20,975 nt of DNA from a virus. The stretch lies in UHGV virus genome UHGV-0216266; one strand, written 5' to 3'. The notes beneath the pieces were generated by a model. It was not told where the DNA came from, ran no database searches, and saw only the letters and a program-made list of their open reading frames with translations. Both the position numbers and the translations under genes were made by a program. Of the stretch, positions 2,143 through 18,262 are shown in pieces. How positions within the stretch are numbered: position 1 is the stretch's first letter; each line of letters opens with the position of its first letter.

Positions 2143-3043
2143 CCGTTCCTCCGTTGGTTACGCTCCACTGCGTACATGATGCCGCCTGTGTTTTGTTCAG
2201 GACCACATCCGCCAGAGGAGAAGCCAGCTCCACACGCTGCACACCCTCAACATGCAGGGCGGCAAAGATGGCGCTACGGCGAATATCCCGACCAAGACGC
2301 GTCTGACTGGCGATGTACTTCTGCAGGCTGGCTTTTGCCGCTGCCATTACCGGCTCTGCTTCCGGTCCCGGATAGAGAAAAATGGTGGCTTCCACGCGAT
2401 ACGGGATGATTTCTGCGCTGCGAACCGTAAGACGGTCAGCCACCGGGCGGACGTTCTCACTGTTCAGAGCTTTTTCCACCACGTCCAGCAGGTCTTTTTC
2501 TGCAGTTCCATCGCCTTCGCGGCTAAGGACAGTCAGCACCACCTCTGCAGGTGCCGGGCTGGTTGCACTGGCATCCGCCACCCGACCGTCGGCGCTTCGG
2601 GCATGAAATTCATAAGCTGCAGTTGGCCCCGCAACTGAAAGCCCTTCAAAGGCTGCAGGCACACGCAGGCGTAACGCTTCATCGCTTTCCATCACAGCTG
2701 CAACGGGCGGCACAGCGTCATTATCAGCAGGCGTCACCGTCAGGCGTTTCACGTTGTAGTTGGCAGCGAGCTGGTCAAGATCGCTGCCCATCGCGTAAGC
2801 CACCATCACAGCCTGCGCGGCTTCGTTAATGCGCTGGCGCAGAAGCAACTCACGGTAAGCGTTCTCCTGCAGCAATTTGGTGACGGGTTCAGATTCCAGT
2901 TCCAGCGTGCGGATCACTGCTTCCTGCTCATCTTTCGGATGAAGCGCAACAAATTCGGCCTTGCGTTCGGCAAGCAGCGTCTCAAAGTCCGGCACATCCA
3001 CAATCTGCGGCGCAGGCAACTGCGAAAGGTCAATCACTGCCAT
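2135..3043 (-). CDS. J: Baseplate assembly protein (P2 gpJ-like)
   Basis: The track ORF extends to 3082, but the internal ATG at 3041-3043 (MAVIDLSQLPAP...) gives 302 aa, the size I recall for P2 gpJ, and overlaps the W stop at 3030-3032 by only 14 nt. Synteny W-J-I. Confidence 0.8.
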   Translation of the reverse strand: MAVIDLSQLPAPQIVDVPDFETLLAERKAEFVALHPKDEQEAVIRTLELESEPVTKLLQENAYRELLLRQRINEAAQAVMVAYAMGSDLDQLAANYNVKRLTVTPADNDAVPPVAAVMESDEALRLRVPAAFEGLSVAGPTAAYEFHARSADGRVADASATSPAPAEVVLTVLSREGDGTAEKDLLDVVEKALNSENVRPVADRLTVRSAEIIPYRVEATIFLYPGPEAEPVMAAAKASLQKYIASQTRLGRDIRRSAIFAALHVEGVQRVELASPLADVVLNKTQAASCTQWSVTNGGTDE

Positions 3044-3389
3044 TCTCTGCTCCTGTTGATACGGAAAGGGAAACAGGCACACCGTTATTACGCCGCCCGC
3101 TCAGCACCACCACCATTGAACCGTCAAAATTGCTGTTGATGGTGATGGAATCCAGCGTCATCCGTGGCTCCCAGCGACTCAGCGCCACATACACTGCCGA
3201 CATGACCTGCAGGCGTAATGCCGGATTTTGTGGCTGGTCTATCAGTGCCGACAGCAGGGAACCATATTCACGGCGAGCAATGCGGCTACCCTGCGGCGTC
3301 AGCAGAATGTCCCGCACCGACTGGCGCAGATGGTCAATATCAGTAATGACTTTGCCGCTGGTATTGTTCATCCCGCTATAAAGCGTCAT
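3030..3389 (-). CDS. W: Baseplate wedge protein (P2 gpW / GPW-gp25 family)
   Basis: 119-aa ORF. ATG at 3387-3389 overlaps the V stop (ATGA). Size and position match P2 W. Confidence 0.75.
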   Translation of the reverse strand: MTLYSGMNNTSGKVITDIDHLRQSVRDILLTPQGSRIARREYGSLLSALIDQPQNPALRLQVMSAVYVALSRWEPRMTLDSITINSNFDGSMVVVLSGRRNNGVPVSLSVSTGAENGSD

Positions 3390-3964
3390 ACCGGGCCTCC
3401 GGTTGTATCTCCGCCTTTCAGGACGCCAGTATGCTGATGCGCATCAACCACGATCCCGTTAGAACTCATCGCTCCGCCGCCCTGAGTAACGCCACCATTG
3501 ATCACCACTTCGCTGTTAATGCGCGTGCGGTCAGCCTCCAGTACAAACTCACTGGTTTTCATGGTGATGTTGTCAGCGGCCTCAATGACCATTGATTTGA
3601 TGCCCCTGACATACCAGCGCCCGGTGGCGGGTTCATATTCAAACCAGCTACCGTCAGGATGTTCTGTCACGCAGGCGTCCGCCGACGTCGACGGTGGTGC
3701 GAACTGATTCGAATAGACAGCGGGCAGCGCAAAGGCAGTCTCCAGATTGCCGCCCAGACTCAGCAGCACCACCTGCTCACCTTCTGATGGTTTCCACCAT
3801 GTGCGGGCATTACCCGCGCGCAGCGTCAGCCAGTTAATCCAGTTAGTTTCAAGGTCGCCCGTTTTCACCCGGCAAAGCCAGTTTGTCCTGTCCACTTCGG
3901 TGACTACCCCAGTGCGGATCAGGTTGGTGATAAGGCGCATGATTTCGGTTAATTGTGCGTTCAT
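3386..3964 (-). CDS. V: Baseplate spike/hub protein (P2 gpV-like)
   Basis: 192-aa ORF, ATG at 3962-3964. First gene after a non-coding gap that follows S, as for the P2 V operon. Protein is Gly/Thr-rich at the C-terminus, typical of spike proteins. Confidence 0.75.
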   Translation of the reverse strand: MNAQLTEIMRLITNLIRTGVVTEVDRTNWLCRVKTGDLETNWINWLTLRAGNARTWWKPSEGEQVVLLSLGGNLETAFALPAVYSNQFAPPSTSADACVTEHPDGSWFEYEPATGRWYVRGIKSMVIEAADNITMKTSEFVLEADRTRINSEVVINGGVTQGGGAMSSNGIVVDAHQHTGVLKGGDTTGGPV

Positions 3965-4009
3965 AGGGAAAGGTTGCCATCAGGGGAAGAAAGGCGGCAG
4001 TGCTGCAAC

Positions 4010-4029
4010 TTGTATCAGTGCTGATACAA
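4010..4029 (-). promoter_or_regulatory. Perfect 9+2+9 palindrome TTGTATCAG-TG-CTGATACAA containing TGT-N12-ACA; candidate late-activator (Ogr/B-type) site for the V operon
   Basis: Read directly at 4010-4029. TGT is 4011-4013 and ACA is 4026-4028. It lies in the 68-nt gap between the S stop (4033) and the V start (3964). P2-family late promoters carry a TGT-N12-ACA dyad (established knowledge). The centre is ~55 nt from the V ATG, which is closer than I would expect if the dyad is centred at -55 from the transcription start. Confidence 0.4.
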
Positions 4030-4032
4030 AAA

Positions 4033-4479
4033 TCACCCCGCCAGCCATTGCAGAATCATGTCGCGGGTCATTGCCTCAACATCATCATTTACACCCAGAA
4101 GGCGACGCTCTGCGTAACGGACCTCCGGTCCTTTGCGGCTGACGCGATCACGTAAGCCGTAGTGATGAACACGGGCAATGCGCTGTACCTTGCCTTCAAA
4201 CTGCACGCTGGCAGAGTCGGCGCTGGCGGCAGTTTTCAGGTATTTTGTGGTGCGCAGCTTTGTAAACATCTGACGTTTGATGCGCCCCTTTTTGCTGCGT
4301 GCTGTTACCCTGCGCGGCTCATAACTGCTGCCATCAGGATTGCGCTGCATCCTGATGTTCTGCTGCTGTGTCCGGCGCAGTTCCTGCGCCAGCTGGCGCA
4401 TCATGCGGCTTCTTGCGGCTGGCTCCAGATTCGCCAATAATGCACTCAGCCAGTTGTCCACCTTCTGCAGTTCATCCAC
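4033..4479 (-). CDS. S: Tail completion protein (P2 gpS-like)
   Basis: 148-aa ORF. GTG start at 4477-4479 overlaps the R stop at 4472-4474. Synteny R-S-V. Confidence 0.7.
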   Translation of the reverse strand: MDELQKVDNWLSALLANLEPAARSRMMRQLAQELRRTQQQNIRMQRNPDGSSYEPRRVTARSKKGRIKRQMFTKLRTTKYLKTAASADSASVQFEGKVQRIARVHHYGLRDRVSRKGPEVRYAERRLLGVNDDVEAMTRDMILQWLAG

Positions 4480-9006: not shown

Positions 9007-9840
9007 TCAGCAATTGGTCAGAGTGTCAGCGGGGGCGTTACCGCCTGTTGCACGCTGGCGGTAGTCCTGGCGGCTGTCTTCATGACTCAGCTTATCCACC
9101 AGTTCGTTAAAGGCGGCTTGTTGTGCCTGCAGGGCAGTCTCCATCTCAGACAGGCGTTCTTCCTGCTCAGACAGGAATTTTTCGGTGCGCGTGCTCAGGT
9201 TTTGCTGCTCAGTGGCGACCAGTTCCACGGCCTTATGCACATCAGAGAACCGTGCATCATCGGACTGCTCTTTTTTGGTGAACAGCGCCGTGACGCGGGC
9301 AAACAGGGACGGCTTGTCCTCCTGGACTTCTTCCAGTTCGATCACCGTTTCCTCTGCAGCGGTAAAAAGATTGGCGGGATTCTGCTTGCGGTTTGCCAGC
9401 GGGTTATGGGCTGCACTGGCGCTGAATGTCAGCATTTCCGTACCCAGACTGGCGGGATCATCAGTGGCAGCCAGGCCGACCAGGTAGGCTTTGCCCGTAT
9501 CAGCAAACTTCGGGCTGACTTCCATAGAGGTGAATAATTTCTGGCCTTTTTTCACCAGTTCCACCAAGGACTCCGTTGGCTCAACGTCGGCATACAGTGC
9601 CATCTTGCCTGCCAGCGGACCTTCCGTGATTTCTTCAGCAAACAGCGCCGTCACCTTGCCGTAGCGGTTAAAGGTGCTGTCCGGAAGATAAGACTTGATG
9701 TGCTCAAGGTTAATCAGCGCGGTGTACACCGCCGGATTGTAGCTGGCTGCCATCTGTTCCAGCCATTCACGCTGGATTTCGCGTCCGTCGGTAGTGGCAC
9801 CTTCCACCCCGATGCGAAAACGCTTTGCTTTCACTGTCAT
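9007..9840 (-). CDS. O: Capsid scaffolding protein (P2 gpO-like)
   Basis: 277-aa ORF, ATG at 9838-9840 with a GGAG Shine-Dalgarno. Acidic, coiled-coil-rich C-terminal half. Divergent from P across a 142-bp intergenic region. Confidence 0.8.
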   Translation of the reverse strand: MTVKAKRFRIGVEGATTDGREIQREWLEQMAASYNPAVYTALINLEHIKSYLPDSTFNRYGKVTALFAEEITEGPLAGKMALYADVEPTESLVELVKKGQKLFTSMEVSPKFADTGKAYLVGLAATDDPASLGTEMLTFSASAAHNPLANRKQNPANLFTAAEETVIELEEVQEDKPSLFARVTALFTKKEQSDDARFSDVHKAVELVATEQQNLSTRTEKFLSEQEERLSEMETALQAQQAAFNELVDKLSHEDSRQDYRQRATGGNAPADTLTNC

Positions 9841-9918
9841 GAGCCGTGCTCCGTTAGAAAAAACTTACTGGAGCCTTATGGTTACGGTGATGGGGGCAGT
9901 GAAACAATGCGCGGTATT

Positions 9919-9936
9919 TGTACCGACAACCACACA
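9919..9936. promoter_or_regulatory. TGT-N12-ACA dyad in the O/P divergent late-promoter region
   Basis: TGT at 9919-9921 and ACA at 9934-9936, the only such dyad inside the 142-bp O-P intergenic region. Its centre is ~87 nt from the O ATG and ~55 nt from the P ATG. Arm symmetry is weak beyond TGT/ACA, so a chance match is possible. Confidence 0.3.
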
Positions 9937-9982
9937 AACCGCAGGCGGGGAAAGCCTTCATTCAAGGCTGTAGGTTTGTGCC

Positions 9983-11749
9983 ATGAACACCACACTGACA
10001 CCCGCAGATCTCGATCCCCGTCGGCAGGCCATGCTGCTGTACTTTCAGGGATACCGCGTAGCCCGCATTGCTGAAATGCTGGGCGAGAAAGTTGCAACCG
10101 TTCACAGCTGGAAAAAACGCGACAAGTGGGGTGACTATGGGCCGCTGGATCAGATGCAGCTCACCACCGCCGCACGCTACTGCCAGCTCATTATGAAGGA
10201 GCACAAAGAAGGGAAAGATTTCAAAGAGATTGACCTGCTGGCGCGCCAGTCTGAGCGCCACGCGCGGATCGGCAAGTTTAACAATGGCGGCAACGAATCC
10301 GACTTAAACCCTAACGTCGCCAACCGCAACAAAGGCCCACGCCGTCAGCCGGAAAAGAATGTTTTCACCGATGAGCAGATTGAGAAGCTGGAAGAAATCT
10401 TCCATTCCTCCATGTTCAACTACCAGCGCCACTGGTGGGAAGCCGGAAAAACCAACCGCATCCGCAACCTGCTGAAGTCACGCCAGATCGGCGCGACCTT
10501 TTACTTTGCCCGTGAAGCCCTGATTGACGCCCTGCTGACCGGACGTAACCAGATTTTCCTTTCCGCCAGCAAGGCACAGGCCCACGTCTTTAAGCAGTAC
10601 ATCATCGACTTCGCCAAAGAAGTGGAGGTGGAGTTGAAAGGCGATCCGATGGTGCTTCCTAACGGGGCCACGCTTTACTTCCTCGGCACCAATGCCCGCA
10701 CGGCCCAGAGTTATCACGGCAACCTGTATCTGGATGAATATTTCTGGATACCGAAATTCCAGGAGCTGCGCAAAGTGGCTTCCGGTATGGCTATTCACAA
10801 GAAATGGCGACAAACCTATTTTTCCACGCCATCCAGCCTGACACACAGTGCTTATCCGTTCTGGTCCGGTGCGCTATTCAACCGTGGGCGCAACAAAGCA
10901 GATAAGGTGGACATCGACCTGTCCCACAGCAATCTGGCCCCCGGCCTGCTGTGCGCAGATGGGCAATACCGCCAGATTGTCACCGTGGAAGATGCAGTGC
11001 GCGGCGGATGTAACCTGTTCGACCTCGATCAGTTACGCATGGAGTACAGCCCGGACGAATACCAGAACCTGCTGATGTGCGAGTTTGTGGACGATCTCGC
11101 GTCTGTGTTCCCACTCAGCGAGCTGCAGGCGTGCATGGTGGACAACTGGGAAGTCTGGACCGACTTTCATGCACTGGCACTGCGCCCATTTGGCTGGCGC
11201 GAAGTGTGGATCGGTTATGACCCGGCGAAAGGTACGCAGAACGGCGACAGTGCCGGATGCGTGGTGGTGGCACCGCCAGCCGTGCCGGGCGGCAAGTTCC
11301 GCATTCTTGAGCGTCACCAGTGGCGCGGGATGGACTTTCGCGCCCAGGCTGACGCCATCAAAAAACTGACCGAACAGTACAACGTGACCTATATCGGCAT
11401 CGACTCAACCGGCGTTGGTCACGGGGTTTATGAGAACGTGAAAGCGTTCTTTCCTGCCGTCCGGGAGTTTGTCTACAACCCCAACGTTAAAAACGCCCTG
11501 GTACTCAAGGCCTACGACATTATCAGCCACCGCCGTCTGGAGTTTGACGCCGGGCACACCGACATTGCGCAGTCATTCATGGCAATCCGTCGCGCCACCA
11601 CCGCCAGTGGCAACCGCCCGACCTATGAAGCCAGCCGCAGCGAAGAAGCCAGCCATGCCGATCTGGCCTGGGCAACGATGCACGCACTGTTTAACGAACC
11701 GCTGCAGGGCGAATCCGCCAATACCAGCAATATTGTGGAGATTTTTTGA
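9983..11749 (+). CDS. P: Terminase large (ATPase) subunit (P2 gpP-like)
   Basis: 588-aa ORF (P2 P is ~590 aa by memory), ATG at 9983-9985. Its TGA stop overlaps the Q ATG (TGATG). Confidence 0.85.
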   Translation: MNTTLTPADLDPRRQAMLLYFQGYRVARIAEMLGEKVATVHSWKKRDKWGDYGPLDQMQLTTAARYCQLIMKEHKEGKDFKEIDLLARQSERHARIGKFNNGGNESDLNPNVANRNKGPRRQPEKNVFTDEQIEKLEEIFHSSMFNYQRHWWEAGKTNRIRNLLKSRQIGATFYFAREALIDALLTGRNQIFLSASKAQAHVFKQYIIDFAKEVEVELKGDPMVLPNGATLYFLGTNARTAQSYHGNLYLDEYFWIPKFQELRKVASGMAIHKKWRQTYFSTPSSLTHSAYPFWSGALFNRGRNKADKVDIDLSHSNLAPGLLCADGQYRQIVTVEDAVRGGCNLFDLDQLRMEYSPDEYQNLLMCEFVDDLASVFPLSELQACMVDNWEVWTDFHALALRPFGWREVWIGYDPAKGTQNGDSAGCVVVAPPAVPGGKFRILERHQWRGMDFRAQADAIKKLTEQYNVTYIGIDSTGVGHGVYENVKAFFPAVREFVYNPNVKNALVLKAYDIISHRRLEFDAGHTDIAQSFMAIRRATTASGNRPTYEASRSEEASHADLAWATMHALFNEPLQGESANTSNIVEIF

Positions 11750-12783: not shown

Positions 12784-12827
12784 AAGAAATAACCACCACC
12801 AGTCACACATTGGTAATGTGTGACTGG

Positions 12828-13373
12828 TTAGCGTCCCAATCTAAAGTTTAATTTTTCTCTTGGAGTCATTGCACGCCCAATAGCCCCATCTAATAAATGA
12901 CTATTTTTCTCTAAATGTTCACGCGCCCATGGCTGTAAGTTGAAAGCAAAACCGTAGATCATATCCCCAACACTGGTGGCTCTATAAGTAATCCCCTTAG
13001 CCACAAGTCCCCCCATGACCCCATCCTCAGGCCCACACATAAGTGAATTAACACCTTCGGTAATATAAGACTTTAAATATCCTTTTTCTTCTGCTGTTAG
13101 CTTCTCAAGGTAGGAAGTGCGTACCTTCTTAGCCTGCCTTTCACCAAGTAAGTCATAGAAAGAGAGATAGACTCTTGCAACTAAATAAGATACAGACAGT
13201 AAAAATGCAGGTCCAATAAAAATCCTATACTCATTACGAAAGCCATCAACAGCCACTTTTACTGCCAAAGAGTCTGGCAGAAAAAGTATAAGACCTAAAA
13301 CACATGTAATAGCCACAAGAAATGCTGCAGGTACTTTTCGAAAAAACTCTGCAACTCCAGTTATAACGTCCAT
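12828..13373 (-). CDS. Hypothetical two-TM membrane protein (accessory gene between portal gene and cos)
   Basis: 181-aa ORF in visibly AT-rich DNA (~37-40% GC on hand-counted lines, against ~55% in flanking phage genes). ATG at 13371-13373 with a GGAGG Shine-Dalgarno 10 nt upstream. Two N-terminal hydrophobic helices (AAFLVAITCVLGLILFL, IFIGPAFLLSVSYLVARVYL) and a ~110-aa soluble C-terminal domain. No family recognised. Confidence 0.6.
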   Translation of the reverse strand: MDVITGVAEFFRKVPAAFLVAITCVLGLILFLPDSLAVKVAVDGFRNEYRIFIGPAFLLSVSYLVARVYLSFYDLLGERQAKKVRTSYLEKLTAEEKGYLKSYITEGVNSLMCGPEDGVMGGLVAKGITYRATSVGDMIYGFAFNLQPWAREHLEKNSHLLDGAIGRAMTPREKLNFRLGR

Positions 13374-13462
13374 TTTGTCTATACCTCCAACAGCGCTAAA
13401 AAGTATTTTGAAATTCTACCTCATAACTATGCCAAAAGCACTGCGTCCCCCATCAGCGCGCG

Positions 13463-13481
13463 CTCGTATCCCCGCCACGCC
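13463..13481 (-). other. Candidate cos (cohesive-end) site
   Basis: The minus strand reads GGCGTGGCGGGGATACGAG. The first 13 nt match the 19-nt cohesive end I recall for phage 186 (GGCGTGGCGGGGAAAGCAT; P2 has GGCGAGGCGGGGAAAGCAC). Orientation points toward Q, as expected. Confidence 0.5.
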
Positions 13482-13526
13482 TGCCCGCTTTATGTAGTGG
13501 TTTTCATGCAGGTGCATAATCTACGC

Positions 13527-13550
13527 AAAAGCCCGCCAGTTCTGGCGGGC
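13527..13550 (-). terminator. GC-rich hairpin (GCCCGCCAG / CTGGCGGGC) with a U4 tail on the minus strand
   Basis: Perfect 9-bp inverted repeat at 13531-13550. The minus-strand transcript would end ...hairpin-UUUUGCG. No U-tract on the plus strand. Confidence 0.4.
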
Positions 13551-13823
13551 CTTAGCAAAAACGATCCTCAAACGATCATGCAATCTCATGCAGCATAGAC
13601 ATGCACAGACGAGTAAAGCGAATCGGACTTTACGCAAGGTGAACTCCTCAGCGGGCATAATCAGTATGTCGGAAGATCTCTAAAAATGAATAATTCGGTT
13701 AACAGGTATGCTTACAAAAGCATATATTTGATTAAAAATCATGTAAGGGGGAGGATCTCAAACTGAATCGCCACGGGTTTTACAAACTTCGATAGTCTCT
13801 CTAACGTTTCGGCTGAGGTCAAA

Positions 13824-14249
13824 ATGAAAAGCTTTTACGTATTAATTTTAATTCTGGTTGCAAGCTTTGTTAGCGTCCCAGTTCAGGCGGTAACAGCTAA
13901 AAACTATGAGAAAGGAACTAAAGCTCAACAGAAATCAATATCTTACCTTTCATGTGCATTCTATGGCAGTAGCACACAATTAGATCCTAGCTACACGGAG
14001 CAAGTACCTACAGCCGATATCAAGATATTACAGAAAGCAGCTTACCACGCTTACAACGATGCGCTCTCATACTTTGGCTATGAGGAACCAGATCACGAAC
14101 AACGCATAATTGATTATGCTGAATTTGTGGCGTCGCAAGAAGCTGTGTTATGGGATAAGCCGGGAATGAATGGAAAGCAGGTAACACTAATTGCTCGTTC
14201 TCTCTACAATGAGAGTAACTGTAACTTGTTACTGGACTCAATTAAGTAG
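13824..14249 (+). CDS. Hypothetical secreted/periplasmic protein (accessory gene at the old/tin-equivalent position)
   Basis: 141-aa ORF in AT-rich DNA. ATG at 13824 with a GAGG Shine-Dalgarno 5 nt upstream. N-terminal signal peptide MKSFYVLILILVASFVSVPVQA with an AXA-type cleavage motif (VQA/VT). Mature ~119 aa with two Cys. Convergent with the DinI-like operon. No family recognised. Confidence 0.6.
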   Translation: MKSFYVLILILVASFVSVPVQAVTAKNYEKGTKAQQKSISYLSCAFYGSSTQLDPSYTEQVPTADIKILQKAAYHAYNDALSYFGYEEPDHEQRIIDYAEFVASQEAVLWDKPGMNGKQVTLIARSLYNESNCNLLLDSIK

Positions 14250-14408
14250 GAAAAAGATGGTATTTTGCCCGTAGTTTCAACCTTAATCTCCAAACCTGTC
14301 GCAGAACGGGCGTTCACTCATCAAATAAACGCCACACCTAACGCCTCACTGTACTCGTTGTTCAACCTTGCTGACGCCAGAAGCAATTTCAGACGCCAGC
14401 AACGTTTC

Positions 14409-14642
14409 TTAATGCAGCCAGCTGTCGTCTTCCCACACCTTCTGCATAATTTTCATCACTTGTTTTCTTTCTTCGTCCAGTTGCAGTCCGGTCAGTTCCA
14501 CACCGTTAGAGCTACCTTTGCGGATACGAATTACCGTTTTGGGATACAGGGGGCGCAGATTGCGGTAAAGCTCGGATTCAAGGGCGTCCAGTGTAGACTG
14601 GCTAATCTTCTGCTCTTTATCGATCATTATTTCAATGCGCAT
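14409..14642 (-). CDS. DinI-family protein (resembles the DinI-like C-terminal part of the 186 Tum antirepressor)
   Basis: ATG at 14640-14642 (MRIEIMIDKEQKISQSTLDALESELYRNLRPLYPKTVIRIRKGSSNGVELTGLQLDEERKQVMKIMQKVWEDDSWLH, 77 aa) with a GAGGTG Shine-Dalgarno. Similar to E. coli DinI (MRIEVTIAK...ETWESADDWFV) as recalled from memory. Confidence 0.7.
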   Translation of the reverse strand: MRIEIMIDKEQKISQSTLDALESELYRNLRPLYPKTVIRIRKGSSNGVELTGLQLDEERKQVMKIMQKVWEDDSWLH

Positions 14643-14652
14643 AAAAGTCACC

Positions 14653-14841
14653 TCAGCTGATGACATCCATTGAGCGGTTGTATTCGTGGGTTCTGATTTT
14701 TGCCATGAGTTCATCTGTCAGTTCAGAAACCCACTGCAGGGCCAGCCCCTTCTCTTCATCACTACACTCACTAGCCGCTACAAGCTTAAGAAAAAAATCA
14801 ATGCGCTGGAGCTTCAAAGACTCCAAAAAATAGTCCTGCAT
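14653..14841 (-). CDS. Small acidic protein, first gene of the LexA-controlled operon (possible Tum N-terminal-like module)
   Basis: 62-aa ORF. ATG at 14839-14841 preceded by GGAGG. Stop 10 nt upstream of the DinI-like start. Directly downstream of the LexA-box promoter. Confidence 0.55.
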   Translation of the reverse strand: MQDYFLESLKLQRIDFFLKLVAASECSDEEKGLALQWVSELTDELMAKIRTHEYNRSMDVIS

Positions 14842-17408: not shown

Positions 17409-18262
17409 GCACGTACTCCGTACACGGCAGAACTATCCACGCCACGCGAATAATCAAATCCCATCCAGCAGCGCGGCCCGGAAACAGCAATGATTTCTGT
17501 TGCTGATTTACCCTCGCCAGCTGCCACACCGATGCTGCGTTTTACCTTGATATAGTGGTGAGTAAAATTGCGATACAGCGAACGGATCAGGGATGTGTCA
17601 CTGTTAGAAACAATGACCGGATGTCCTTCTGATGACCGATGTTCAAGAACGGATGCCAGGTGATACTGGTCATCTTCAGTGAAACCATCAGTGTGATAAC
17701 CGGAAAACGTACCGTCATATGGCGGATCGCAATACACCACATCTCCCGCCTTCAACATCGTCAGCGTTTCATCAAAGCTGGCGCAGATAAACGTTGCTCG
17801 CTGGGCTTTTTCTGCAAATGTGCGAAGTTCTTTTTCAGGGAAATACGGATTTTTATAATTACCGTAGGGAATGTTGAAATGCCCGCTCTTGTTATAGCGA
17901 CATAAACCACGGTAACCGTGACGATTGAGATACAGGAAATATACCGCTTTCATGAAATCAGTAATTTCAGTTGAGCAGTTAAACTCCTGCCTTATGTTGT
18001 AATAAGCCACCTCCCTGTTTGCGATCTCAAATAAAACTCTGGCGCGAGATATAAACGATTCACAATCAGCGGCAACCTTTTTATAGAGGTTGATTAAATC
18101 AGGATTAATATCCGCAACCAGATAGCTGGGATAATCCGTTTCCATCATCACAGCACAGGAACCCGCGAAAGGTTCAACCAGTCGCGGGCCAGCAGGAAGG
18201 TATTTTTTCAGTTCTGGCATAATGGCGGTTTTATTTCCCGCCCATTTCAGGATGGTGCTCAT
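17405..18262 (-). CDS. DNA N6-adenine methyltransferase (Dam family), orphan
   Basis: ATG at 18260-18262 ([11 protein letters not shown]..., 285 aa) with a GGAGG Shine-Dalgarno. Motifs KWAGNK, EPFAGS (SAM-binding FxGxG) and DPPY (catalytic motif IV of N6-adenine methyltransferases). No adjacent nuclease gene. Confidence 0.85.

Follow-up and report, generated by a model that had tools for sequence, protein, structure and literature searches.

Late transcription and the S-V and O-P gaps

Two inverted repeats in a P2-like prophage raise the question of where its late mRNAs begin. We analyzed a stretch of 20,975 nt (UHGV virus genome UHGV-0216266; here the window), in which the motif TGT-N12-ACA lies about 55 nt upstream of the start codons of the late genes V and P. 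Ogr binds inverted repeats whose center lies near -55 and acts via the RNA polymerase alpha subunit (PMC3152322), and TGT-N12-ACA is common to P2 late promoters (PMC3931495). The initial annotation had taken the same distance as its premise, in agreement with this literature, and had drawn from it that transcripts from both dyads would be nearly leaderless unless this phage follows another spacing rule or its start codons have to be revised.

The window is a P2-like Escherichia coli prophage of the Wadgaonvirus type (Peduoviridae), and the segment is a common one, carried by at least 540 of the 5,426 E. coli genomes that are complete. Gene identities assigned by Pfam placed the dyads at the heads of late operons, one in the gap between S and V and one in the gap between O and P. 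Applied to an identical segment of an E. coli chromosome, PGAP called both S and V and left the V start codon unchanged. Searches for known RNA families (Rfam) and tRNAs found none in the window. The features of the S-V region are as follows.

3386 to 3964, minus strand: gene V (baseplate spike), which opens the V-W-J-I-H operon; Pfam Phage_base_V and Apex; aligned from M1 with P2 and 186 V; PGAP start identical
3962 to 3964, minus strand: ATG start codon of V; P2 annotation and dyad geometry predict that transcription begins on its A (3964)
3971 to 3976, minus strand: -10-like hexamer CAACCT, at -12 to -7 relative to the V ATG and 43.5 nt away from the dyad center; A(-11) and T(-7) conserved
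3995 to 4000, minus strand: putative weak -35-like CTGCCG (-36 to -31), which the P2 clade has as TTGCCG; 29 non-redundant contexts show weak conservation of the T at -35
4010 to 4029, minus strand: predicted binding site of the pV activator (Ogr type), TTGTATCAG-CA-CTGATACAA on the coding strand; center at -55.5 from the V ATG
4033 to 4479, minus strand: gene S (tail completion), which closes the O operon; Pfam Phage_tail_S

A conserved dyad at a fixed distance from the V start codon

As first annotated, the plus strand at 4010-4029 reads TTGTATCAGTGCTGATACAA, a perfect 9+2+9 palindrome with a 2-nt center, and TGT-N12-ACA occupies positions 4011-4028 within it. The palindrome is the main occupant of the 68-nt gap that separates the S stop codon (4033-4035) from the V ATG (3962-3964), and it lies 3 nt from that stop codon. 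From the dyad centers at 4019.5 and 9927.5 to the first base (A) of the V and P start codons, respectively, the distance is exactly 55.5 nt in both cases, which refines the earlier figure of about 55 nt. Half-sites common to the relatives follow the consensus wT-TGT-R-Y-S-A (extended form, wTTGTRYSA).

Motif frequency was uninformative, and the case for the dyads consequently rests on their position. TGT-N12-ACA occurs four times in the window against 5.3 +/- 2.3 expected, close to the five chance occurrences estimated earlier, and we dropped enrichment as an argument. Besides the two dyads, the match at 295-312 sits within the tail-fiber gene and looks like chance, and the match at 9977-9994 over the P ATG appears to be chance as well, being unconserved, with TGT replaced by TGG in the sister group. 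The palindrome itself is unusual: of perfect palindromes with arms of at least 9 nt and loops of at most 4 nt, the window has three against 0.49 expected.

All 42 distinct 150-nt sequences upstream of V in the window's clade contained exactly one perfect TGT-N12-ACA, located 54.5 to 57.5 nt from the V ATG and at exactly 55.5 nt in 34 of them. In IMG/VR, the initial scans yielded V genes of close relatives alone (at least 88% identity); the diversity analyzed is owed to upstream cassettes that have been swapped and to separate scans that used P2 V and SEN4 P as seeds. From 157 related loci we obtained 29 non-redundant V-upstream contexts that are mutually less than 76% identical. These unrelated contexts retain the dyad 54.5 to 57.5 nt from the V ATG and an nAnnnT -10 element at -12 to -7, and they lack a Shine-Dalgarno sequence. 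Upstream conservation is limited to the dyad, A(-11), T(-7), and, weakly, T(-35), and homology among the relatives starts exactly at the V ATG. In the P2 clade, the left half-site is retained at the same place. In dozens of lineages, the upstream DNA has thus been exchanged entirely while the 55-nt distance at V persists, which implies strong selection for a leaderless V message in enterobacterial P2-like phages.

The predicted pV promoter and its P2 counterpart

No consensus sigma-70 promoter was present in 3800-4200. CAACCT and CTGCCG agree with the sigma-70 consensus at key positions only, and such a poor match without a good -35 element predicts dependence on an activator. Since the -10 hexamers match TATAAT solely at A2 and T6 (CAACCT), the start point could shift by 1 to 2 nt. 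Pairing of the V upstream sequence with the anti-Shine-Dalgarno sequence was the weakest among 14 late genes (-1.8 kcal/mol), and the downstream genes of the V operon do carry Shine-Dalgarno sequences. We discarded a divergent promoter reading from the S-V dyad into S antisense, as the mirror position (4063-4068) reads GCGGGT and by eye lacks nAnnnT.

The P2 record (NC_001895) places the pV activator site at 10239-10266 and the start of the V operon at 10308, the first base of the V coding sequence, from which it follows that the P2 V mRNA is leaderless. A passage in PMC4633059 also names P2 among the sources of leaderless genes, crediting Christie and Calendar (1985), so that the leaderless status of P2 V derives from the RefSeq feature table and this secondary citation. 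As in the window, P2 pV lies between S and V with its activator dyad 55.5 nt from the V ATG, its -10 element is minimal (CAATCT versus CAACCT here), neither V has a Shine-Dalgarno sequence, and both V proteins begin with MN. The sequences upstream of the two ATGs are otherwise unrelated. The P2 site is TGT-N11-ACA, whereas the site here has N12 within a perfect palindrome of 9-bp arms; the P2 promoter is separated from S by orf30 and a putative terminator, whereas only the 68-nt gap is found here; and the P2 start is annotated, whereas that of the window is predicted from geometry and homology to P2. On the 186 record, the V homologue orf32 carries no promoter feature; in its upstream sequence, TTGTGTGA forms a left half-site at a distance of about 55 nt from the ATG, and CATTCT occupies -13 to -8.

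The palindrome had been read as a late-promoter dyad of the Ogr/B/Delta type before V, and the P2 pV site at the same position agrees with this reading. The expectation of near-leaderless transcripts likewise agrees with the P2 V-operon start. The arrangement at pV is therefore ordinary and already mapped in P2; the same geometry at P seems to be little documented.

A probable shared dyad between O and P

The second dyad lies between two divergent genes, O on the minus strand with its ATG at 9840 and P on the plus strand with its ATG at 9983. The region has the following features.

9007 to 9840, minus strand: gene O (capsid scaffold/protease); Pfam Phage_GPO
9841 to 9872, minus strand: predicted O leader of 32 nt, from dyad geometry, with a GGAG Shine-Dalgarno sequence at 9849-9852
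9879 to 9884, minus strand: putative pO -10-like TAACCA (CAACCA in most relatives); start predicted near 9872 (+/-3 nt), analogous to P2 pO
9919 to 9936, no strand assigned: predicted activator site shared by pO (leftward) and pP (rightward), TGTACCGACAACCACACA; one site in the P2 and 186 records; conserved in 80 relatives
9971 to 9976, plus strand: pP -10-like TAGGTT, followed by 6 nt and the P ATG; TATGTT in the sister group, TAGCCT in P2, 186, and others
9983 to 9985, plus strand: start codon of P; geometry predicts that pP transcription begins on its A (9983), without a leader in this lineage
9983 to 11749, plus strand: gene P (terminase large subunit); Pfam Terminase_5, Terminase_6N, and Terminase_6C

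The initial annotation suspected that this site in particular might be fortuitous. It corresponds, however, to the single activator site that pO and pP share in the P2 record, with starts at 3016 and 3127, 55 to 56 nt to each side, and to the single B-protein site recorded for pV and p12 in 186. In both phages, as here, the gap that separates the scaffold gene from the terminase gene has one dyad. Judged by this correspondence, the O-P dyad is a late-promoter element that must also serve O, and a fortuitous origin is excluded.

The distance from the dyad to the O ATG (87.5 nt) is that found in 186. On the P side, the dyad center of P2 and 186 is 78.5 nt from the ATG, with a 23-nt leader and a GGCGAGG Shine-Dalgarno sequence, whereas here the distance is 55.5 nt and the leader is absent. 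In the proposed comparison with the late promoters of 186, the shared pV/p12 site agrees and the leader of P differs.

The late promoters compared have a uniform architecture. At +43.5 nt from the dyad center lies a hexamer in pV, pP, pO, and the pF of a relative, and at +55.5 nt lies an A, A, T, and A, respectively. The leaders predicted from this geometry are 0 nt for pV, 0 nt for pP, 32 nt for pO, and 30 nt for the relative's pF; GGAG or AGGAGG is present at both of the genes with a leader. The predicted O and P starts fall about 55 nt to either side of the dyad, 111 nt apart. P2 shows a similar layout, with GAAACT, 6 nt, and the start site at pO and 57 to 59 nt from activator site to start at pF.

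The main competing explanation is that the O-P dyad drives pO only and that P is transcribed with a leader from a start further upstream or from another promoter, with AAGG/TAGG serving as a weak ribosome-binding site; on this view, the 55.5-nt distance to P would simply follow from the compactness of the intergenic region. In P2, 186, PSP3, and ST147phi7.1, P does have a 23-nt leader with GGCGAGG, so that both experimentally studied phages, P2 and 186, have a leadered P, and the AAGG...TAGG sequence upstream of P pairs formally with the anti-Shine-Dalgarno sequence at -5.6 kcal/mol. Against this, AAGG is 14 nt from the P ATG, and the 142-nt O-P region holds no further dyad upstream of P. Moreover, TAGGTT lies exactly 43.5 nt from the dyad center and 6 nt before the ATG, matching the position of TAGCCT relative to the mapped P2 start. 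In the sister group, a G-to-T change turns TAGG into TATG, improving the match to a -10 element and abolishing the reading of AGG as a Shine-Dalgarno sequence.

The combination of hexamer, 6 to 7 nt, and ATG, with a dyad at 55.5 to 56.5 nt where one is present, also recurs in divergent clades, namely, Dagavirus, Graikaemvirus, and Senquatrovirus, and was found in 17 of 24 distinct IMG/VR contexts. In ENT90, the hexamer is followed by 7 nt and the P ATG without a recognizable dyad. Weighing these points, we regard a P that is leadered and independent of the dyad as doubtful, though it deserves serious consideration, and favor a dyad shared by pO and pP.

Start codons of V and P

Short normal leaders would result if the V or P start codon were misassigned or if the activator acted over a different distance in this phage. 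Automated gene calls are fallible, and in-frame ATGs occur at codon 9 of V and codon 17 of P. Neither downstream ATG has a Shine-Dalgarno sequence, however, and M1-N2 of V aligns with V of P2 and 186 and is invariant, with conservation among relatives beginning at the ATG despite unrelated upstream DNA. In P, the Terminase_5 domain starts at residue 11, ahead of the next methionine, and the N terminus aligns with that of P2. The two main sequence groups differ by three substitutions in P codons 1 to 16, all synonymous third-position changes; a few single relatives have non-synonymous changes as well. An altered activation distance conflicts with the leadered pO and pF of the same lineage, which fit the 55.5-nt rule with leaders of 30 to 32 nt and clear Shine-Dalgarno sequences. 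These findings support the assigned start codons of V and P and make either variant of this explanation improbable. Neither a different spacing rule nor revised start codons, the two ways out offered by the initial annotation, is needed when P2 itself is leaderless at V.

An RNA hairpin as an unlikely reading of the palindrome

Instead of, or besides, binding a protein, the S-V palindrome might act as an RNA hairpin (terminator, attenuator, or processing site) that ends the O-S operon. Its start just past the S stop codon is in keeping with such a role, as are the putative terminator that follows S in P2 and the folding of the read-through RNA (4045-3990) at -22.3 kcal/mol (z = -2.46). The palindrome is not followed by a U-tract, though (AAGUUGCAG), the sole terminator-like match in 3800-4200 is weak and lies upstream (one found versus 0.6 expected), and the Rfam search had no match. 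Folding of the dyad is also unconserved, since the values for the relatives span 0.0 to -16 kcal/mol and many of them are 0, whereas the TGT/ACA motif and the distance to the ATG are invariant. We rejected a terminator or other RNA hairpin as the main function on the missing U-tract, the chance-level scan match, and the unconserved folding, and we give a hairpin role little credence. With no convincing terminator between S and V, read-through from the O-S operon may reach V.

That the palindrome and TGT-N12-ACA arose by chance, as the unenriched bare motif might suggest, is hardly conceivable given that their position is conserved in every relative examined, that palindromes with such arms are rare, and that the sites correspond to annotated functional sites in P2 and 186.

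The candidate activator and a model for late transcription

The window ends inside the tail-fiber gene, short of the expected position of ogr. The FI region, in front of which P2-like phages have a further late promoter of this kind, is outside it as well. A complete phage that is 96% identical, NC_049342, encodes a 72-amino-acid Ogr_Delta protein at 29211-29429, after gene D (PF04606; E = 9e-21), and has a pF dyad before its sheath gene. The activators of P4 (Delta), PSP3, and phiR73 belong to the Ogr/Delta zinc-finger family (PF04606), as is expected of the activator here. The Delta-dependent promoters of the satellite phage P4 (Psid and PLL) have operators of the same TGT-N12-ACA class (PMC3931495) but belong to a different element than the phage studied here.

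From the sequence, its positional conservation, and the correspondence with annotated sites of P2 and 186, we infer that the activator binds, where transcription starts in this phage, and how translation is initiated. In this model, a zinc-finger activator of the Ogr family would bind two TTGTRYSA half-sites centered 55.5 bp upstream of the start and, by way of the alpha subunit, bring sigma-70 RNA polymerase to a promoter whose -35 element is poor (CTGCCG) and whose -10 element is minimal (CAACCT, 3971-3976). Transcription from pV would start on the A of the V ATG (3964); a start there would make the V-W-J-I-H mRNA leaderless, with V lacking a 5' untranslated region and a Shine-Dalgarno sequence, and ribosomes would bind the 5'-terminal AUG of V directly. 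The 9919-9936 site would act bidirectionally as one activator site for pO and pP. The O transcript would begin near 9872 with a 32-nt leader and a GGAG Shine-Dalgarno sequence, and the P-Q transcript would begin at the A of the P ATG (9983) as a second leaderless late mRNA. Taken together, the S-V dyad probably is the operator of pV with V leaderless, and the O-P dyad is probably shared by pO and pP with P leaderless in this lineage.

Leaderless initiation in E. coli needs an AUG start codon, and V and P both have ATG. Lambda cI (from PRM) and Tn1721 tetR are known AUG-first transcripts that likewise have an ATG start and no Shine-Dalgarno sequence (PMC4633059), but they encode regulators, whereas the predicted leaderless cistron here heads a polycistronic structural operon. 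A point against the model is that leaderless translation in E. coli is inefficient, at about 10% of leadered translation (PMC4633059).

Possible role and consequences for annotation

We lean somewhat toward the view that P-Q is leaderless both here and in Dagavirus, Graikaemvirus, Entnonagintavirus, Senquatrovirus, and relatives, and that this is a conserved, deliberate device for low output or for translation coupling. If so, P-Q would start from the shared Ogr site without the 23-nt leader and Shine-Dalgarno sequence of P2 and 186, and two of the four late operons would be AUG-first. V (spike trimer) and P (terminase) are needed in few copies, and leaderless initiation would set a low output for the first cistron. 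Alternatively, leaderless messages could couple translation of the late genes to the condition of the host's translation machinery. In either case, the arrangement would be more than a P2 curiosity.

The S-V palindrome and the O-P dyad can be annotated as late-promoter activator sites, and the start codons of V and P should be kept despite the missing ribosome-binding sites. P alternates between leadered and leaderless forms among genera and so provides a natural series of promoters and 5' ends for the study of leaderless translation in E. coli. The rule that the -10 hexamer lies 43.5 nt and the start 55.5 nt from the dyad center predicts late transcription starts in common P2-like prophages.

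Late genes in the window

By nucleotide and protein comparisons, the window is part of a Peduoviridae prophage of the P2-like type, with 96% identity to both Escherichia phage 500465-1 (genus Wadgaonvirus) and Klebsiella phage 4LV2017; its segment 3800-4200 is 100% identical in several E. coli chromosomes and was found in at least 540 of 5,426 complete E. coli genomes. Pfam matches and annotations of relatives gave the following late genes, those on the minus strand being the P2 "rightward" ones:

3386-3964, minus strand, V, followed by W, J, I, and H
4033-4479, minus strand, S
9007-9840, minus strand, O
9983-11749, plus strand, P, with Q likewise on the plus strand

Since the end of the window falls in a tail-fibre gene, neither pF, the late promoter of the FI operon, nor ogr lies inside it.

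A palindrome with P2 pV geometry upstream of V

Most of the 68-nt S-V gap is taken up by a perfect palindrome (4010-4029; plus strand, TTGTATCAGTGCTGATACAA; 9-bp arms, 2 nt between them), which contains TGT-N12-ACA, the motif of Ogr/B/Delta-type late activators. The window holds four matches to this motif (295, 4011, 9919, and 9977), and shuffles gave 5.3 +/- 2.3, bearing out the chance expectation of about five in the initial annotation, so the count alone is no proof. Perfect palindromes of this size are rare: three with arms of 9 bp or more occur in the window, against 0.49 expected. Centred at 4019.5 and 9927.5, the 4011 and 9919 dyads are each exactly 55.5 nt away from the first base of a start codon (V, 3964; P, 9983). 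The perfect palindrome and the shared spacing of about 55 nt noticed earlier are confirmed. The remaining matches were judged to be chance as late sites: 295-312 is inside the tail-fibre gene, and 9977-9994 overlaps the P ATG and has TGG in the sister group, the second main sequence group among O-P relatives. We also observed that the palindrome core (plus-strand 8-mer CAGTGCTG, 4016-4023) has a second copy 18 nt downstream at 3998-4005, at a -35-like position in the promoter spacer; this repeat may be chance or a remnant of duplication.

In the P2 record (NC_001895), positions 10239-10266 are labelled "activator binding site; activation of pV promoter"; the centre of this site is 55.5 nt from the V ATG, identical to the distance in the window. 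The "transcription start site for V operon" is placed at 10308, the first base of the V CDS, so that P2 V mRNA is annotated as leaderless. A paper on leaderless translation (PMC4633059) names lambda, P2, and Tn1721 as the origin of the small number of leaderless genes studied in E. coli, citing Christie & Calendar 1985, "Bacteriophage P2 late promoters II", for P2. The conserved inverted repeats to which Ogr binds have their centres at about -55 from late start sites, and Ogr works via the RNA polymerase alpha subunit (PMC3152322, with co-authors from the P2 late-transcription group), and the TGT-N12-ACA consensus of PP, PO, PV, and PF is restated in PMC3931495. The -55 rule used in the initial annotation is thus correct, and the leaderless consequence, which it took to call for a different spacing rule or revised start codons, is, for V, the accepted state.

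Conservation upstream of V among relatives

We collected 80 IMG/VR loci with V proteins at least 88% identical to that of the window (window clade) and 80 further loci around P2-type V. The V proteins are almost identical, yet the DNA 5' of the ATG belongs to many unrelated sequence types, with an S-V cargo insert of at least 637 bp in 30 of the 80 window-clade loci and the 68-nt gap of the window in the other 50. Exactly one perfect TGT-N12-ACA was present in all 42 distinct 150-nt upstream sequences of this clade, always centred 54.5 to 57.5 nt from the V ATG (55.5 nt in 34/42). In the P2 clade, the left half-site GTTGTG(C/T)CA is held in place at 55.5 to 56.5 nt. Retention of this distance despite wholesale replacement of upstream DNA is modestly new.

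Across a non-redundant set of 29 contexts (<76% identical), the only informative upstream columns were the TTGT...ACAA dyad, A(-11), T(-7), and a weak T(-35), and strong conservation starts exactly at ATGAAC of V. A(-11) and T(-7) are the key bases of a -10 hexamer spanning -12 to -7; with a hexamer that ends there, the start point falls on the A of the V ATG. Anti-Shine-Dalgarno (anti-SD) pairing of V is the weakest of the 14 late genes in the window (-1.8 kcal/mol, versus -9.5 to -9.7 kcal/mol for I, W, and K). Residues M1-N2 of V are invariant relative to P2 and 186, and the PGAP start call is identical. These findings strongly support the S-V palindrome as the pV operator and make a leaderless V mRNA in the window phage likely. 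The observation holds, although in essence it finds again the pV promoter of P2 with its leaderless V message.

We read the palindrome as a protein site rather than an RNA hairpin, and a conserved terminator role for it is unlikely. Read-through RNA around it has a moderate fold (-22.3 kcal/mol, z = -2.46), but self-complementarity outside the TGT/ACA triplets is not conserved (predicted hairpin energies lie between 0.0 and -16 kcal/mol, many of them 0), the dyad is not followed by a U-tract, the sole match in a terminator scan was weak, at chance level, and upstream of the palindrome, and no Rfam families or tRNAs were present. Both halves of 21 distinct sites, folded together, gave the half-site consensus w-T-TGT-R-Y-S-A, which the window sequence TTGTATCA matches on both sides.

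The S-V junction is a cargo hotspot among loci L005-L084, with window 3965-4032 as the empty form. Most inserts hold a single AT-rich ORF that runs on the opposite strand, as orf30 does in P2; their products include TIR_2- and FRG-domain proteins and several without a Pfam match. Every cargo variant has its own pV dyad sequence at unchanged distance from V, and in L077 a recombination joint lies between dyad and -10. A common P2-clade pV variant (L087 and most P2-clade loci) carries a GC-rich hairpin, GCCGCCGG-TATGAC-CCGGCGGC followed by ATCCTTCCCGTT, at -40 to -14 upstream of V, between dyad and -10. This hairpin, missing in P2 itself and in the window, could attenuate O-operon read-through just ahead of V.

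The shared O-P site and the start of P

The 142-nt O-P gap is well conserved (80 relatives), and 9919-9936 is its only dyad. The P ATG is 55.5 nt away from this dyad and the O ATG 87.5 nt, a distance shared with 186. The P2 record likewise has a single site (3057-3087) for both pP (start 3016, ATG 2993, leader 23 nt) and pO (start 3127, ATG 3167, leader 40 nt), and in 186 a single B-protein site lies between pV and p12. The shared pO/pP site is also recovered in the window. Applying P2 geometry to this dyad predicts two promoters:

pO, start near 9872, hexamer TAACCA at 9884-9879, 32-nt leader, GGAG at 9852-9849
pP, start at the A of the P ATG, hexamer TAGGTT at 9971-9976, then 6 nt

In P2, the equivalent hexamer TAGCCT is also followed by 6 nt and a mapped start, but then by the 23-nt leader with GGCGAGG, which the window lineage lacks.

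We considered whether the P start is mis-called or served by a hidden SD. In the sister group, TATGTT, a better -10, replaces TAGGTT, and the only AGG near the P ATG is lost. Three substitutions divide the two main groups over P codons 1-16, all synonymous and at third positions, with non-synonymous changes in a few single relatives. The Pfam domain Terminase_5 begins at P residue 11, and the next Met lies further on, at residue 17. A hexamer, 6 to 7 nt, and ATG, with a dyad at 55.5 to 56.5 nt, recur in ST13-OXA48phi12.1, vB_YenM_31.17, and SEN4; ENT90 has a hexamer, 7 nt, and ATG with no recognisable dyad. A scan that started from SEN4 P showed the hexamer arrangement (TAGCCT, TACTCT, TAATCT, or GAAAGT) in 17 of 24 distinct contexts. 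The sister-group hexamer, the synonymous substitutions, the Terminase_5 boundary, and this recurrence favour a leaderless P over either alternative. We regard a leaderless P in the window lineage as a well-supported prediction that is rather more probable than its alternatives, though less secure than for V. The earlier suspicion that the 9936 site may be fortuitous does not hold. Other phages have P leaders of 23 nt (P2, 186, PSP3, and ST147phi7.1), 48 nt (vB_YenM_42.18), or about 25 nt with GGAGGG (one IMG/VR clade). An apparently leaderless terminase gene, in this genus and several others, is modestly new.

One terminase clade (IMG/VR loci L296-L303) lacks TGT-N12-ACA and has in its place, about 44 to 67 nt upstream of the P ATG, a different perfect 24-nt palindrome, GGTTCTCATAGC|GCTATGAGAACC, centred at the same -55.5, which suggests a late activator with changed DNA specificity and unaltered promoter geometry. 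In Salmonella phage SEN4 (KT630645.2), just 44.5 nt separate the annotated O start from the shared dyad, which cannot be reconciled with a pO start at -55. A more likely start is the in-frame ATG some 54 nt further downstream (MPMTNFFR..., fitting the P2 O N-terminal motif KFFR), and the deposited CDS is probably too long.

The late regulon in a complete relative

The complete phage NC_049342 (96% identical) encodes a 72-aa Ogr_Delta zinc-finger protein after gene D (PF04606, E = 9e-21) and has a third perfect dyad, TGTGTGAATAACGACACA, 85.5 nt ahead of the sheath gene. From its centre, +43.5 nt leads to the hexamer CAACAT and +55.5 nt to an A, leaving a 30-nt pF leader with AGGAGG; in P2, the pF site is at 17555-17583 and the start at 17626-17628. 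All four late promoters of this lineage have one architecture in common, and predicted leader length alone varies (0, 0, 32, and 30 nt for pV, pP, pO, and pF).

In the mechanism we propose, the Ogr homologue would bind the palindrome as a symmetric oligomer and touch the alpha C-terminal domain of RNA polymerase, and sigma-70 holoenzyme would start transcription at the A of the V ATG. Ribosomes would then start on the 5'-terminal AUG, with W, J, I, and H served by their own SDs. Homology, conserved geometry, and the missing SD are observed. We infer binding, start sites, and translation mode in the window phage, taking the known parts by analogy from P2, and consider the mechanism as a whole probable.

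A cargo locus between Q and A

Window 12828-14660 is a cargo locus between Q and replication gene A:

12828-13373, minus strand, SieB superinfection-exclusion homologue (PF14163, E = 4.5e-25)
13824-14249, plus strand, ORF with no match in Pfam or PADLOC
14265-14660, plus strand, ORF with no match in Pfam or PADLOC

A perfect palindrome with 14-bp arms (12798-12828, ACCAGTCACACATT-GGT-AATGTGTGACTGGT) sits between the stops of Q (12783) and of the SieB-like gene that converges on it (12828). It may serve as a terminator in both directions or as a protein site; a clear T-run is absent on its plus side. A GC-rich perfect palindrome, GCCCGCCAG-TT-CTGGCGGGC, preceded by AAAA, lies at 13531-13550 within non-coding 13374-13823 in the cargo/cos-proximal region, and could either terminate leftward transcription or be a piece of the cos region.
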